Sequence record: PZ534512.1 | Origin: a phage | Direction: 5' to 3' (one strand) | Length of the DNA stretch: 64,000 nt | Shown here: positions 41,881-47,839 of the stretch, in pieces | Layout: each line of letters opens with the position of its first letter | Numbering within the stretch: position 1 is the first letter of the stretch | Notes under the pieces: generated by a model | Seen by the model: the letters and a program-made list of their open reading frames with translations, nothing else | Database searches by the model: none | What the model was told of the DNA's origin: nothing | Made by a program: the position numbers and the translations under genes

Positions 41881-42354
41881 ATGAAATCATATACTCAATT
41901 TTTAAATGAAGCGGTGTTAAATGAAGCATCTAGCACCGAAATTCAAGCTGTCGCAAAAGCAGCCATTGCAGCGGGTAAATATTCTTATAAAGATGCTTCT
42001 GATGAATCGCGATTCCAGTTCGCACGCGACATGAAAGCGGAAGGATTTACGGGAAATGCAGTTAGTATGGCCTGGAAAAGTTTAGTTGCTACTGGCGCTG
42101 CTTTTGCAAAGGCTTCGGGTAAACCTGCTCCTAAAGCAGATCCTAAAGTCGCACAAGAGAAAAATATTGTTAAAGGAATTATCTCCAAATATGAAGCTAT
42201 CCTTAAAGAGCTTTTAGTAATCAAAACTGAAGGCCAAAAACTAGCTCGTGCTTATAGTTTCAAAGATAACCCACATGCTCACTCTCTTGAGTATGTTGAA
42301 GACATTCAAAAAATTATTAAAGACCGCATTTGGTCTGCTAAACAAATCAAATAA
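41881..42354 (+). CDS. internal-protein-like protein with capsid targeting sequence (157 aa)
   Basis: N-terminus MKSYTQFLNEA resembles the T4 CTS; bracketed by near-identical terminator hairpins. Confidence 0.6.
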   Translation: MKSYTQFLNEAVLNEASSTEIQAVAKAAIAAGKYSYKDASDESRFQFARDMKAEGFTGNAVSMAWKSLVATGAAFAKASGKPAPKADPKVAQEKNIVKGIISKYEAILKELLVIKTEGQKLARAYSFKDNPHAHSLEYVEDIQKIIKDRIWSAKQIK

Positions 42355-42361
42355 CATTCTT

Positions 42362-42389
42362 AGCCCTAGCCGAAAGGTTGGGGCTTTTT
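42362..42389 (+). terminator. intrinsic terminator (near-copy of the one at 41805)
   Basis: AGCCCTAGCC-GAAA-GGTTGGGGCT followed by TTTTT. Confidence 0.8.
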
Positions 42390-42522
42390 GGTATCTAGGC
42401 CTTTCCAGGCCTCTCTAGACATCATTTAGTTTCTACCCTTTATAATATATTATCCTATCCTTTGATTTCCCCTCCCTGCCCTAGAATTCCTCAAAACTTT
42501 TTAAAAATTTTTTCACAAAACG

Positions 42523-42552
42523 GTTTACATCCTTGTCCTTCCATGGTACTAT
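42523..42552 (+). promoter_or_regulatory. T4-type early promoter
   Basis: GTTTAC -35 (42523-42528), 18-nt spacer, TACTAT -10 (42547-42552); upstream A/T-rich TTTTTCACAAAACG. Confidence 0.7.
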
Positions 42553-42595
42553 ACAACTATCAACTACTGATACAGAAAACAACTTGGAGAATGAA

Positions 42596-42859
42596 ATGGA
42601 TAATTACGGCGAACTGTTCAACTTCTTTATGAAATGTGTTTCAGAAGATTTTGGTCGTACAGTGAATGATATTAAAGTTATCGGTCCTGATCATCCGATG
42701 TTTGAAACTTATGCAGTAATGGGTAATGAAGATGGTCAGTGGTATACTGTAAAGGTTGTAATTAATATGTTCACGGCAGAAGGTTATGTTAAACTGTCTT
42801 CTAAAGTTTACCATGATAACGACGAAATCGCAGAAGAATATTTCAATAATATGAAATAA
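42596..42859 (+). CDS. hypothetical protein (87 aa)
   Basis: ATG after GGAGAA downstream of the early promoter; the ORF-track 5' extension begins at a TTG inside the promoter. Confidence 0.55.
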   Translation: MDNYGELFNFFMKCVSEDFGRTVNDIKVIGPDHPMFETYAVMGNEDGQWYTVKVVINMFTAEGYVKLSSKVYHDNDEIAEEYFNNMK

Positions 42860-43472: not shown

Positions 43473-43503
43473 GTTTACAATCTATTAGAAACGTGATATT
43501 ATC
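43473..43503 (+). promoter_or_regulatory. T4-type early promoter
   Basis: GTTTAC (43473-43478) and TATTAT-like -10 near 43498. Confidence 0.55.
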
Positions 43504-43529: not shown

Positions 43530-44123
43530 ATGAACACACTGAAGAAAATTGTTGAGTTTATTCGCACTAAACTTGGTTCTGCTATGGCTAAAAATCTATC
43601 TGTTGAAGAACAGTATACTGCTGCGGCAGCAAAACTACTTGATAAGATTAAAGATCTAAAAACTGCTTCTGTTAAATCTATTAATGAAGAAAAGCGTATT
43701 CGTGAACTTATTGTCGAAAAGAATAAGCAGGCCGAATCAAAAGAGCGTGAAATTCGCAAGCTTCTTTCGGAAGGTCAAGATGTAACAATGCATGCTAAAC
43801 TTGGTTTACTATATCGTCGAACAGCTGAGCAGTTGACTACTAAAGCTGATGGTTATGCTGAAATGCGAATTGAAATCGCCAAGAAAGTAGTTGAATTGGA
43901 TGATGCTCGCCAAGAACTTGCAGTTAAATTGGAATATATCCGTGAAACTCGTGCAGCAAATGCCCTTGGAATTAGTACTGCTGATGATGTAGTTGAAATT
44001 GCAGCACTGACTAAGGTTGATATTGAAGATACTCTTGCTCGAGTTGAAACCTTTAATGGCAATATTTCTGGGGTTGAAACTACCTCTGCCGATGTTCAGG
44101 AATATATTAATTCTCTGAAATAA
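43530..44123 (+). CDS. hypothetical coiled-coil protein (197 aa)
   Basis: Long heptad-rich helical sequence; followed by GGGGCTTCGGCCCC hairpin. Confidence 0.5.
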
Positions 44124-44128
44124 TGATA

Positions 44129-44144
44129 AGGGGCTTCGGCCCCT
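44129..44144 (+). terminator. hairpin after the coiled-coil gene
   Basis: AGGGGC-TTCG-GCCCCT; no clean T-run, so efficiency uncertain. Confidence 0.45.
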
Positions 44145-44164: not shown

Positions 44165-44773
44165 ATGAAAATGCAAAGTGATTTCAATTCAATGTTTGAA
44201 GAGTTCCAAAGACAGGTTGATGTTCCAGATCAATTATTAAATGCTCTTAAACGTATGGCAGAAGGACGTAATTATTATTGGGGTTCTTCATATGAAACTG
44301 ATGAAAGTCTTTCTAGAGGATTTTCTAGAGGTAAAAAGTCTTTAATACGTCCTGGAATACTTATTAACAGTATTGAATCAATTCATTTATTAACATGCGA
44401 TTTTGACGTTGAATTTACTGATTTTGTTTCTCCTGAATGGACGGTCTGTTATTTAAACGACGATTATGATTATCTTGGCGTTTATAGTTTAAGTGATGCA
44501 CGGTTTAAACGTAATTTACAAAAGTCAAATTTATTTTATATTGATACTACTGTAAAATTTCAGGGCAAGAAATATTTCTTTACTCTTATAGTTGATTCTG
44601 AAACGAAGCATGAAAATAAACGTATTCTTAGTAAAAAGAATATCTTAACTATTGTCGATGATCTTTTTGATAAATTCGTAGAAAATCCCAATTTTGAAAG
44701 CGATTTATTATTAGAAAAATTTGTGAAGGAATGCAGAGAATATGTCAAAGCCATCAATGTATCTTCCAAGTAA
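44165..44773 (+). CDS. hypothetical protein (202 aa)
   Basis: ORF; C-terminal FVKECREYVK shared with the three downstream membrane-protein ORFs. Confidence 0.5.
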   Translation: MKMQSDFNSMFEEFQRQVDVPDQLLNALKRMAEGRNYYWGSSYETDESLSRGFSRGKKSLIRPGILINSIESIHLLTCDFDVEFTDFVSPEWTVCYLNDDYDYLGVYSLSDARFKRNLQKSNLFYIDTTVKFQGKKYFFTLIVDSETKHENKRILSKKNILTIVDDLFDKFVENPNFESDLLLEKFVKECREYVKAINVSSK

Positions 44774-45134
44774 ACCGTTGAAGTATGAATTAAAGCGCCA
44801 GCTAATTTCTACTGATGTATTAATAGGTCCTGTAATAGCTGTATCATTTGTAATTCTACTGGGGGTTGGAATAGTTATAGATGTTATGACTGATATTGAA
44901 TCTAATATAATATTTGCGTCAACATTAATTCTTCCAATGATAGTTCCATTTTTATTAGTACCTGTAAATTGGGTAGGATACTGGTATCAAGGAAGACATT
45001 ATCGTAAACGCGTACGCGATTGGAAAGCTCAGTGTAAAAAGATTAAAAATGAACACCAGCTTAAACTTGCTGCGTATGAATTTGATGAAATTATGAAATT
45101 TGTTAAGGAATCACGATGCAAAAGCCAAAACTAA
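44742..45134 (+). CDS. small membrane protein, paralog 1 (130 aa)
   Basis: Two predicted TM helices; C-terminal FVKESRCK tail; overlaps neighbours. Confidence 0.5.
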   Translation: MSKPSMYLPSKPLKYELKRQLISTDVLIGPVIAVSFVILLGVGIVIDVMTDIESNIIFASTLILPMIVPFLLVPVNWVGYWYQGRHYRKRVRDWKAQCKKIKNEHQLKLAAYEFDEIMKFVKESRCKSQN

Positions 45135-45490
45135 ATAAAGTTAAATATTCGTTTCCAGAGGCACTATTAATTCTTGCCGTATCAGCATTTGCAGCTCTTG
45201 CAGGTAGTCTTATTGGATTGTTAATTGACTGTTTTATTTTAAACATCCGTAGTAACGTCAGCGGTATAATAGATATAATAGAAGTTTGGAGTGAACTTCA
45301 TTATACTATAGCGATTTCATTATTTTCATTCTTTGGTACAATGTTATATTTTCATTATGATAATTTTAAAATAAATTGGCAAAGAAAAAAGGATTACAAA
45401 ATACAATTAAAGGAATATAATAGCTACATGTCTTATATTGAAAAAGAATCAATGGAAGAGTTTGTGAGTGATTGTAGGAAAATTAAATGA
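45116..45490 (+). CDS. small membrane protein, paralog 2 (124 aa)
   Basis: Two predicted TM helices; C-terminal FVSDCRKIK; ATGA overlap with next ORF. Confidence 0.5.
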   Translation: MQKPKLNKVKYSFPEALLILAVSAFAALAGSLIGLLIDCFILNIRSNVSGIIDIIEVWSELHYTIAISLFSFFGTMLYFHYDNFKINWQRKKDYKIQLKEYNSYMSYIEKESMEEFVSDCRKIK

Positions 45491-45975
45491 TTTTAAAAAC
45501 TCGCTGGTATGATTTAGATGATGGGGATGATGGCATTTCAGTTGATAGAGTTGACTGGAGTGGCTGTTCCGAAGATATGAAAAAAATGTTAATTAGGGAG
45601 TTTAGAATGGGATATCAAGCAGCTAAGCCATCTACTATAACAGATGATAAGTTCGTATGTATTCATAATGGTCGCGCTAAGTTAACGAACGCTGATTGGT
45701 TCACAGATAAAATTATGATTCTGTGGTATATTATTAGTCTTCCTGTGACATCATTCGTATTTTACTTTTTTATAAAAAATCCAATGGACAGAATAGGAGA
45801 TTGGATTCTTTTAACCATACTTGTTAATATTTTTACAGCAGCAATATTATCTGGGATATGGTGCGTGTTCATTGAAATGCCATGGCGGTTACGCAGACAG
45901 CAAAAGATTTTTGATGAAAAGAAATATACTCAAAATTTAAATAACTTTATCACTGAATGCAGGAAATTAAAATGA
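45487..45975 (+). CDS. small membrane protein, paralog 3 (162 aa)
   Basis: Two predicted TM helices; C-terminal FITECRKLK; ATGA overlap with nudE region. Confidence 0.5.
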   Translation: MILKTRWYDLDDGDDGISVDRVDWSGCSEDMKKMLIREFRMGYQAAKPSTITDDKFVCIHNGRAKLTNADWFTDKIMILWYIISLPVTSFVFYFFIKNPMDRIGDWILLTILVNIFTAAILSGIWCVFIEMPWRLRRQQKIFDEKKYTQNLNNFITECRKLK

Positions 45976-46412
45976 AAACACTATCAGCTGGTATTATCTT
46001 TATGACAGAAGATAAAGATTTATTTATGGGACGAGTTACTGGTTCTCGTAAACCTGGATTGATGGCACATCGCTGGGATATTCCAAAGGGGCGTGTAGAA
46101 AGTTCTGATTTAAGCGCATTAGATGCAGCACGAAGAGAATGCTTAGAAGAGACCGGTTTTAGCAATTATAATCCAGACCTTCTAGAAGACCTAGGTGTAT
46201 TTAAATATTCTAGTAATAAAGACCTACAGTTATTTTATTATACGATTCCAGTAGAGCATGAGATGTTTAGAAATTGCCATTGCGAGTCTTATTTTGAAAA
46301 TAAAGATGGTGTTATGATTCCAGAAATGGACGCTTTTGCTCTTATTCCTCGTACTCAGTGGCAATATGTGATGGGTCCTTCACTTTACCGAATAATGAAC
46401 AGCCTCTTTTAA
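45957..46412 (+). CDS. nudE: Nudix hydrolase NudE (151 aa; alternative start 45972)
   Basis: Nudix-box-like segment (GRVESSDLSALDAARRECLEETGF, REx2EE core); 151 aa, directly upstream of e as in T4. Confidence 0.8.
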   Translation: MQEIKMKTLSAGIIFMTEDKDLFMGRVTGSRKPGLMAHRWDIPKGRVESSDLSALDAARRECLEETGFSNYNPDLLEDLGVFKYSSNKDLQLFYYTIPVEHEMFRNCHCESYFENKDGVMIPEMDAFALIPRTQWQYVMGPSLYRIMNSLF

Positions 46413-46943
<531 letters not shown>

Positions 46944-47031: not shown

Positions 47032-47349
47032 ATGAAAACATATCAAGAATTTATTGCAGAATCTGCTGCAGGACAGCGTGTAGAAGGCGGTTATATCTGG
47101 ATTGAACAAGTTGAGCCGCCAAGTCGCACTTCTACAGGTAAATGGAAAATCACTGTTGATGGTCCTGGTGGTAAACGTAGGACTCTTAAAGAAATTAACG
47201 GGTACTATGAAGAAGCTCTTTCTGACGCGGGTACTTATATGATGCAAATCATGATTAAAAACCCAGAAAATCGTTTTGCGGCTAGAGTTTTCCGCCGTAT
47301 TGGAAATAAGCTTTATGATGCATATTCTAAAAACTTCCCTAAAGAATAA
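47032..47349 (+). CDS. internal protein with capsid targeting sequence (105 aa; ipIII/ipII locus)
   Basis: N-terminus MKTYQEFIAES equals the canonical T4 CTS; basic small protein downstream of e. Confidence 0.65.
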   Translation: MKTYQEFIAESAAGQRVEGGYIWIEQVEPPSRTSTGKWKITVDGPGGKRRTLKEINGYYEEALSDAGTYMMQIMIKNPENRFAARVFRRIGNKLYDAYSKNFPKE

Positions 47350-47365
47350 AAATTAAAGGATACAC

Positions 47366-47839
47366 ATGAAAACATATCAAGAATTTATTACTGAAGCAGC
47401 TATTAATTCTCAAATTATTGCTGAATCTTTTACTGATCTTTTGAAATTTAAAAAAGGTCAAAAAATCACTGCTGTATTGGATGATGGTACAGAAATTGAG
47501 ATGGATGTACAAGGATATAATTATGCAGTAGATGGAAAACTGTATAATAAATCTCATGCTAAATTTGATTCATTTGACGACTTTGTTAATACAGTTGAAG
47601 ATGAAAAAACTCGTCGATCCATTGCAACTGGTGATGCTAAGGTTCTTATGGCACATGGTCATGAACGCATTCGCGCTAAACAGAATAAAATGGGTGAAGA
47701 TAATTTTGCATTAGTTGGTTATCAATCTGGTAAACAAACTTATGGCTATCAACGTACTGCTACAATGTATAATAAAAATGGTAAAATTGCCTTTGTAAAT
47801 AGTAAAGGTTCTATTCAGTACGTTAAATCGTTCAAATAA
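47366..47839 (+). CDS. internal protein with capsid targeting sequence (157 aa; ipII/ipIII locus)
   Basis: N-terminus MKTYQEFITEA equals the canonical CTS. Confidence 0.65.
   Translation: MKTYQEFITEAAINSQIIAESFTDLLKFKKGQKITAVLDDGTEIEMDVQGYNYAVDGKLYNKSHAKFDSFDDFVNTVEDEKTRRSIATGDAKVLMAHGHERIRAKQNKMGEDNFALVGYQSGKQTYGYQRTATMYNKNGKIAFVNSKGSIQYVKSFK

Follow-up and report, generated by a model that had tools for sequence, protein, structure and literature searches.

A C-terminal tail peptide encoded in the overlapping gene junctions of the e.5-e.4-e.3-e.2 array of Tequatrovirus

This work concerns an array of four small genes located at positions 44,165 to 45,975 of a 64,000-nucleotide stretch of phage DNA (sequence record PZ534512.1; the whole stretch is called the window below). 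Comparison with the annotated T2 and T4 genomes identified the window as Tequatrovirus DNA and the four open reading frames (ORFs) as the T4 genes e.5, e.4, e.3 and e.2, which lie upstream of nudE and of the lysozyme gene e. This array is the e.5-e.4-e.3-e.2 block of the hyperplastic region that extends from the tRNA genes to the lysozyme gene e in T4-like coliphages. The region (1.9 kb) matches 505 phage records at 90% identity or more, nearly all of them belonging to Tequatrovirus, with Escherichia phage vB-Eco-KMB22 as best match (99.3%). All four proteins end in a common peptide, and the DNA encoding it also carries the Shine-Dalgarno sequence and the start codon of the next gene. We consider it likely that these genes are exchangeable cassettes bounded by their junctions and that the tail peptide is itself under selection.

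Results

A C-terminal tail shared by four consecutive proteins

The proteins encoded by the array all end in [LIMV]xxF[IV]x[ED][C/S]R, with the tails FVKECREYVK... (e.5), FVKESRCKSQN (e.4), FVSDCRKIK (e.3) and FITECRKLK (e.2). A previous examination of the window made from its letters alone (hereafter the sequence-only reading) had reported such a shared tail, and the four tails are as it gave them. In the six-frame translation of the window, the motif F[VI]x[ED][CS]R is found only at these four C-termini, two looser matches falling in short non-coding frames. In a complete 169-kb Tequatrovirus genome, it is found at the C-terminus of ORFs in the same four genes only, compared to 0.15 expected from shuffles. 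The probability that four consecutive proteins carry the motif near their ends by chance, calculated from residue frequencies, is about 1e-18.

Tail-bearing genes were collected from Tequatrovirus, Mosigvirus (moha, TH58), Gaprivervirus (VR26, EAWsc9) and Dhakavirus (VR5, dhaeg). Every collected orthologue of e.5, e.4, e.3 and e.2 keeps the motif, broadened to [LIMV]xxF[IV]x[ED][C/S/V/I][R/K]. A further Mosigvirus protein of 101 residues, m53, has two transmembrane (TM) helices and the same tail motif, and Mosigvirus TH58 carries five tail-bearing genes, all within 4.5 kb.

The sequence-only reading had also predicted two TM helices in each of the three proteins e.4, e.3 and e.2. Hydropathy agrees clearly for e.4 (residues 31-49 and 56-74) and e.2 (78-96 and 111-129); in e.3 a strong segment (19-37) is followed by a weaker one (61-79, Kyte-Doolittle 1.37), which is clear in the Gaprivervirus orthologue. 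No TM segment was detected by hydropathy in e.5, which is not a membrane protein. Since the hairpins are flanked by basic residues on both sides and have short connecting loops, both ends of these proteins are predicted to be cytoplasmic. AlphaFold2 models, which are of low confidence (predicted local distance difference test of 41 for e.5 from a single sequence and of 55 for e.2 from a shallow alignment), suggest a helical tail for e.5 and, for e.2, a second TM helix that extends unbroken to the tail. Overall, e.2 and m53 have in common two TM helices, a basic helix and the tail, and e.5 has the tail alone in common with them.

Comparison of e.2 across genera leaves a single invariant block outside the tail, the acidic N-terminal motif DDxDxGI....VDWxxC (window 45517-45567), which may serve to bind a metal or to make an interaction. 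Two cysteines of e.2, Cys27 and Cys158 of the tail, are likewise invariant.

The tail codons form the junction with the next gene

The sequence-only reading had proposed that the DNA of the tail supplies the Shine-Dalgarno sequence and the overlapping start of the next gene, and this arrangement is seen at all four junctions (Table 1). The overlaps e.5/e.4, e.4/e.3, e.3/e.2 and e.2/nudE are of 32, 19, 4 and 4 nt, respectively. The Shine-Dalgarno sequences are contained in the tail codons and precede the start codons by 5-10 nt: AAGGAA at 44726-44731 and 45105-45110, AGGA at 45476-45479 and 45961-45964. The genes from e.5 to nudE thus form a gap-free run of accessory genes that are probably translationally coupled. 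The junction DNA is made of two pairs of direct repeats, J1 and J1' on the one hand, J2 and J2' on the other hand. The repeats of the first pair are D8 (94% identical), D14 (83%) and D9; the stretch common to J1 and J1' includes AAATTTGT[G/T]AAGGAAT and the starts ATG[TC/C]AAAGCCA. A scan of the window for promoters revealed none in intergenic position between e.5 and nudE, and no unit combining a promoter and a hairpin was found at the junctions, the sole hairpin being located upstream of e.5. Cleavage by RegB, which would involve GGAG, was considered and rejected, most junction Shine-Dalgarno sequences being AAGGAA or AGGAAA and devoid of GGAG.

Translation of nudE likely starts at position 45972, where the ATG is preceded by AGGA at a distance of 7 nt; a longer ORF begins at 45957. 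The Glu-Cys codons of the tail (GAA TGC/TGT) always yield an out-of-frame ATG (window 45957-45975), and this tail-derived ATG is the nudE start in the T4 and T2 annotations (151 aa, MQEIKMKTL...). In other records the protein has 146 aa and begins at the ATG of 45972, whose Shine-Dalgarno spacing is better.

Table 1. Position of the array genes, their junctions and the neighbouring features in the window
Feature	Position	Strand	Description
e.6 homologue	43530-44123	+	197 aa, helical, soluble; phrog_1203, T4 annotation e.6; upstream neighbour without tail motif, outside the array
GC-rich hairpin GGGGC-UUCG-GCCCC	44129-44144	no strand	Between e.6 and e.5; upstream boundary of the gap-free block from e.5 to nudE
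e.5	44165-44773	+	202 aa, no TM segment; Pfam Phage_T4_Y06P; tail FVKECR at 44720-44737
J1 (e.5/e.4)	44717-44753	+	AAATTTGTGAAGGAATGCAGAGAATATGTCAAAGCCA; tail codons, Shine-Dalgarno AAGGAA, e.4 start at 44742; repeat families D8 and D14
e.4	44742-45134	+	130 aa, two TM helices, both ends predicted cytoplasmic; Pfam Phage_T4_Y06O; tail FVKESR at 45099-45116
J1' (e.4/e.3)	45096-45127	+	AAATTTGTTAAGGAATCACGATGCAAAAGCCA; direct repeat of J1, AAGGAA then e.3 start at 45116
e.3	45116-45490	+	124 aa, TM hairpin with weaker second helix; tail FVSDCR at 45461-45478
J2 (e.3/e.2)	45458-45490	+	GAGTTTGTGAGTGATTGTAGGAAAATTAAATGA; Shine-Dalgarno AGGA, ATGA stop/start overlap; D3; left partner of the T2-type crossover removing e.2
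e.2	45487-45975	+	162 aa, soluble N-terminal domain, two TM helices, tail; Pfam PF26896; tail FITECR at 45946-45963
J2' (e.2/nudE)	45943-45975	+	AACTTTATCACTGAATGCAGGAAATTAAAATGA; repeat of J2, D2; right partner of the T2-type crossover
nudE (Nudix hydrolase)	45972-46412	+	About 146 aa; last gene fed by a tail junction
Lysozyme gene e	46449-46943	+	164 aa

The number of tail-bearing genes varies by rearrangements at junctions

The sequence-only reading had proposed looking for variation in copy number of the array among related phages; such variation is present, the tail-bearing genes differing in number and arrangement between genera and within them (Table 2). It had considered its proposal contradicted if similarity did not extend beyond the last residues and if related phages carried a single unrelated gene at this place. 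Similarity beyond the tail is indeed scant, but the relatives carry variable numbers of tail-bearing genes and not one unrelated gene. A scan of IMG/VR retrieved members of the e.2 family from contigs with the arrangements of Table 2 and from no others, with two to four tail-bearing genes per 12-kb locus.

Table 2. Gene orders found at the locus
Phages	Gene order
Tequatrovirus (window)	e.5-e.4-e.3-e.2-nudE
T2-type Tequatrovirus	e.5-e.4-e.3-nudE
UFV06	e.5-(e.4::e.2)-nudE
Mosigvirus	e.5-e.4-(e.3 present or remnant)-[other genes]-m53-228 aa-e.2-78 aa-nudE
Gaprivervirus VR26	e.5-like-e.4-e.3-[other genes]-e.2-78 aa-nudE
Dhakavirus VR5 and contigs L032-L034	As VR26, without e.4

Breakpoints could be placed to the nucleotide for four rearrangements, and they fall in junctions or next to them. 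(i) In T2 and ZN18, the loss of e.2 left a chimeric e.3 tail, GAGTTTGTGAGTGATTG joined to CAGGAAATTAAAATGAAAACACT, whose left half comes from J2 and right half from J2'. Since e.2 lies beside nudE in all four genera, its absence from T2-type phages is a loss. Roughly 10% of the Tequatrovirus records have no e.2 match, and the e.3 variant ending in CRKLK coincides with the absence of e.2 in six contigs out of six. (ii) In the Dhakavirus/Gaprivervirus-type contigs L032-L034, e.4 is lost; the junction of L032 reads GCTAAAGAGGTTCAAAATG followed by GAACGGCCTAG and joins the left part of the e.5-like/e.4 junction to the right part of the e.4/e.3 junction (as in L037), inside the shared A[A/G]GAGGTTCNNAATG repeat. 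(iii) In UFV06 and UFV05, residues 1-31 of e.4 are joined in frame to the C-terminal part of e.2, giving a protein of 106 residues, the fusion point being the start of the first TM helix in both proteins, across the short match ...CCTGT... (iv) In moha, an internal deletion of 250 bp in e.3 kept the start and the last 90 nt, which make up the tail and the junction feeding the next gene. The proposal that the array is built from a reiterated gene-plus-junction unit is thus borne out in that this unit acts as a cassette, as seen from the losses of single genes at junction repeats, the in-frame fusion and the junction remnant.

Selection acts on the peptide

Among 19 genes from the four genera, the Arg of the tail is encoded by AGA, AGG, CGA, CGT or CGC and the Cys by TGC or TGT. 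Furthermore, the Shine-Dalgarno sequence shifts along the motif, being carried by AAGGAA for Lys-Glu, GAGGAA for Glu-Glu, AGGAAA for Arg-Lys and GGAAAA for Gly-Lys. The tail is therefore kept in four genera of Tevenvirinae despite codon changes, which indicates selection on the peptide and not on the ribosome-binding site alone. Within Tequatrovirus, the ratio of nonsynonymous to synonymous substitution rates (dN/dS) is 0-0.18 for the cytoplasmic C-terminal segments, compared to 0.39 (e.2), 0.41 (e.3) and 0.83 (e.4) for the TM hairpins; the three segments of e.5 have values of 0.08-0.17. Entropy profiles agree with this pattern, and both together show that e.5, e.4, e.3 and e.2 are real genes under purifying selection. 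Constraint is strongest in the cytoplasmic tail of the proteins and weakest in their membrane and periplasmic part.

Similarity between the gene bodies

Each of e.5, e.4, e.3 and e.2 belongs to its own PHROG (PHROGs 2607, 2604, 2330 and 2203; E-values of 1e-61 to 1e-107) without any cross-hit, and all the Pfam and PHROG families that they match have no function assigned. The Pfam families of e.5, e.4 and e.2 come from precomputed annotations of near-identical homologues, a search of the local Pfam copy giving nothing significant. BLASTP comparisons between pairs of six proteins gave weak matches restricted to the tail. With HMMER, family hidden Markov models scored the other families at 5-9 bits, yet above all 122 decoy ORFs of the window. 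When tails were included, profile-profile comparisons gave P of about 1e-3 to 3e-6 for 10 of the 15 pairs and of 0.003-0.21 for the other five. When the tail and the three preceding residues were removed (hhalign), all pairs had P of at least 0.017 except e.4/e.3. The latter are colinear over their full length (P = 3.1e-6) and, without the tail, still give P = 3.2e-4 over 95 colinear columns, compared to 1.6e-3 for the best of 30 reversed-profile controls and 0.024 for the best of 30 column-shuffle controls; their N-termini are also similar (MSKP... and MQKP..., respectively). The e.5 protein of Tequatrovirus and the e.5-like proteins of Gaprivervirus and Dhakavirus have little in common beyond the tail (P = 0.086 with the tail removed). 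A mixed profile of e.4, e.3 and e.2 splits tail-bearing proteins from decoys, with scores too low for database searches. These sequence comparisons suggest that e.3 and e.4 are paralogs. The description of the array as a set of membrane-protein paralogs is thus retained in part: the similarity of e.4 and e.3 goes in its direction, the other pairs collapse without the tail, and e.5 is soluble.

Dispensability of the block and searches for function

The genome of the engineered T4 clone T4_583L is devoid of e.2-e.7. In reference T4 (AF158101; L009 3501-3990), e.2 has two compensating frameshifts and is annotated as a truncated protein of 102 aa, the first frameshift being located in an A-run (TATAAAAATCC vs TATAAAAAATCC in the window). 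The T4_583L deletion and the frameshifted e.2 of T4 indicate that the block is dispensable. The same truncation of e.2 was found in other isolates (P0094, P0095), and e.3 is truncated at the A-run ...CAAAGAAAAAAGG... in P0038 and P0040. These frameshifted variants of e.2 and e.3 could be true pseudogenes, phase-like variation or sequencing errors.

Homologue searches with e.3, e.2 and e.4 retrieved close Tequatrovirus relatives only, and an exhaustive HMMER search of 1.84 billion representative proteins with e.5 gave six matches, which are the protein itself, its counterpart in Mosigvirus and fragments. None of the five proteins matched the PADLOC models of defence and counter-defence at E-values up to 1, and no homologue of known function was found in any of these searches. 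Automatic labels designate e.3 and e.4 homologues as "sulfurtransferase" or "DNA primase" and e.2 as "holin"; nothing that we found supports them. The possibility that the tail (NFITE/CRK) is a prohead-protease site or a capsid-targeting sequence ((L/I)xE) was rejected: e.3 has Asp and Val at these positions, predicted membrane proteins should escape the prohead protease, and no other support was found.

Discussion

Junction-bounded cassettes with a selected tail

The account that we favour is as follows. Each protein ends in a peptide, [LIMV]xxF[IV]x[ED][C/S][R/K], that is selected at the amino-acid level and predicted to be cytoplasmic and helical, and the same stretch of about 30 nt carries the Shine-Dalgarno sequence and the start codon of the next gene. 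Because the junction is reiterated, recombination between two junctions would remove, or in principle add, exactly one gene, leaving frame and coupling intact, and recombination at equivalent points of two genes would generate in-frame chimeras. The e.4, e.3, e.2 and m53 proteins would be hairpin proteins of the inner membrane with both ends in the cytoplasm. Their conserved tail may contact a common partner or other tails, possibly bringing the soluble e.5 to the membrane, and their fast-changing TM and periplasmic parts may contact variable components of the host or of competitor phages, for example in superinfection exclusion or counter-defence. The function is probably an interaction at the membrane level with the host or with competitor phages. 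A specific physiological role in exclusion or counter-defence, towards which the sequence-only reading also pointed, is at best a tentative assignment that we would expect to fail more often than to hold. The dispensability of the genes, the variable TM hairpin and the lack of homologues beyond the subfamily bear on it indirectly.

A more precise version would make the tail a docking peptide that gathers the array proteins, including e.5, on one partner or in a hetero-oligomer at the inner membrane. Fast-evolving TM "heads" would be carried on a constant cytoplasmic "handle" and directed against host defences or competing phages, and the junction-bounded cassettes would be swapped between co-infecting phages, perhaps via excised circles. 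We regard this whole scheme as unlikely. If it were true, the array would be a cassette system devoid of dedicated recombinase and written in overlapping coding sequence.

Several points weigh against the cassette account with a selected tail. The homologies at the junctions are short (about 9-17 nt), and selection for viable in-frame products, and not a preference of recombination, could explain why breakpoints are located at junctions. The motif is not absolute: the Cys is replaced by Ser, Ile or Val in e.4 tails and the Arg by Lys in the e.3 tails of genera other than Tequatrovirus. Common ancestry of gene bodies appears limited to the suggestive e.4/e.3 signal, and recombination, not duplication, could have spread the tail. 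Topology and helicity of the tail are predictions, the latter from low-confidence models, and sequence searches of Pfam, PHROGs, PADLOC and the PDB gave no functional lead.

Alternative explanations

All tail-bearing genes could be true paralogs that arose by repeated tandem duplication of a gene with its junction and then diverged except in the constrained tail. The e.4, e.3, e.2 and m53 proteins have one architecture (TM hairpin, basic juxtamembrane stretch, helical cytoplasmic segment of 30-55 residues, tail), e.4 and e.3 are colinear from an N-terminal M[SQ]KP onwards, and e.4 is flanked by J1/J1' and e.2 by J2/J2', as the duplication of a unit would leave. This explanation is nevertheless doubtful: without the tail, the other pairs are non-significant, reversed-profile controls reach P = 1.6e-3, and e.5, a soluble protein of 200 residues, has no detectable likeness to the others and is itself little conserved between Tequatrovirus and Gaprivervirus or Dhakavirus beyond the tail.

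It is very unlikely that the tail has no role as a peptide and owes its conservation only to its nucleotides, which initiate translation of the next gene and form a recombination joint. Such a role would account for the Shine-Dalgarno sequence that every tail holds next to or overlapping the following start, for the survival of the junction in moha although the body of e.3 is deleted, and for the crossovers that fall in junctions. It would not account for the conservation of the Phe, of the Val/Ile and of the hydrophobic residue three positions before the Phe, which are all upstream of the Shine-Dalgarno sequence, nor for the retention of Arg by codon families differing at two or three positions, nor for constant amino acids along which the Shine-Dalgarno sequence moves; the low dN/dS of the C-terminal segments is found with dS similar to that of neighbouring regions. 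A last explanation considers the membrane proteins as holin- or antiholin-like regulators of lysis, forming a relic or accessory lysis cassette beside the endolysin gene e. The e.2, e.3 and e.4 proteins are small, have two TM helices and a highly charged C-terminus, and are predicted to keep both ends in the cytoplasm. This topology, deduced from hydropathy and charge, fits that of class II holins or pinholins, a generic likeness insufficient for membership; the three genes lie 0.5-1.7 kb upstream of the lysozyme gene on the same strand, and one record automatically labels an e.2 homologue as holin. However, the T4 holin is gpt, encoded elsewhere, the block can be deleted and e.2 of reference T4 is a pseudogene without known lysis defect, no holin family of Pfam or PHROGs was matched, a holin role fits neither e.5 nor the N-terminal domain of e.2, and the number of genes varies freely among phages. 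This explanation has little chance of being correct.

Comparison with known systems

Modular shuffling in the hyperplastic regions of T4-type phages has been described for cassettes bounded by promoter-early stem-loops (PeSLs), which combine a promoter with a terminator in intergenic position (PMC2839356, PMC4122927). Like PeSLs, the junctions of the array are short repeats at gene boundaries in regions rich in non-essential orphan genes, and in both cases recombination between nearby copies explains the precise insertion, deletion or replacement of single genes among close relatives. Unlike PeSL-bounded cassettes, the array has no intergenic DNA (overlaps of 4-32 nt) and no promoter and stem-loop, and therefore does not correspond to the definition of PeSLs. 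Its repeat lies inside coding sequence and consists of a selected C-terminal peptide together with the ribosome-binding site and start of the next gene, so that shuffling preserves reading frame and coupling, not a transcription unit.

The internal-protein (ip) genes of T4 have a conserved N-terminal capsid-targeting sequence, whose role is in packaging and prohead-protease cleavage. The idea that ip genes are shuffled via this conserved targeting sequence has been mentioned (PMC4122927). In both systems, a short coding segment common to otherwise unrelated neighbours would be a functional peptide and a patch of homology for cassette exchange. The ip segment is N-terminal and has a known role, whereas that of the array is C-terminal and also serves the translation of the next gene. 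In the window, two adjoining ORFs (47032-47349 and 47366-47839) start with MKTYQEFIAE and MKTYQEFITE, which is the capsid-targeting sequence of T4 internal proteins.

Imm and Sp of T4 are small early proteins of the inner membrane involved in superinfection exclusion. They resemble e.2, e.3 and e.4 as small non-essential phage proteins of the inner membrane encoded in accessory regions, the early timing of the latter being presumed; the shared tail and the array organisation have no counterpart in imm or sp, and e.2, e.3 and e.4 are not known to confer exclusion. In the literature searched, in which older T4 work is thinly covered, we found no paper on the shared tail, on the rearrangements or on these genes.

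T4 is the best-studied large virulent phage, and about half of its genes have no known role. The shared tail provides a common testable handle on four orphan genes. The junction repeats show how accessory genes can be added, dropped or fused in frame with the expression of their neighbours unbroken, and they extend the PeSL model of shuffling from intergenic regulatory cassettes to coding, probably translationally coupled, junctions. If exclusion or counter-defence proves to be the role of the variable membrane parts, the array would provide a compact example of cassette exchange as a source of diversification.

Neighbouring features

The e.6 protein looks all-helical and, when translated sequences are compared by eye across the four genera, varies far less than the array genes. 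It has no Pfam or PDB sequence match; a PspA-like coiled coil came into consideration as a conjecture. We found no support for the "host specificity protein" label that it bears in some records. The hairpin between e.6 and e.5 is perfect (GGGGC-TTCG-GCCCC, with a UUCG tetraloop) and was flagged as terminator-like on the minus strand only. Promoter-like sites with an extended -10 precede e.6 (43474-43502), and others are located before upstream small ORFs (42524, 42863 and 43082).

A second tandem family, absent from the window, follows the e.3 tail junction in Mosigvirus, Gaprivervirus and Dhakavirus, where it lies between e.3 and e.2. It includes three to five small soluble proteins (65-101 aa) that end in W[VFY]xSSxxC right before the stop, with spacers of 9-10 nt from gene to gene (L007 3492-4286; L008 4691-5959; L018 119-1375, minus strand; TH58 42005-42801). 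In VR26, VR5 and TH58, its first gene overlaps the stop of e.3.

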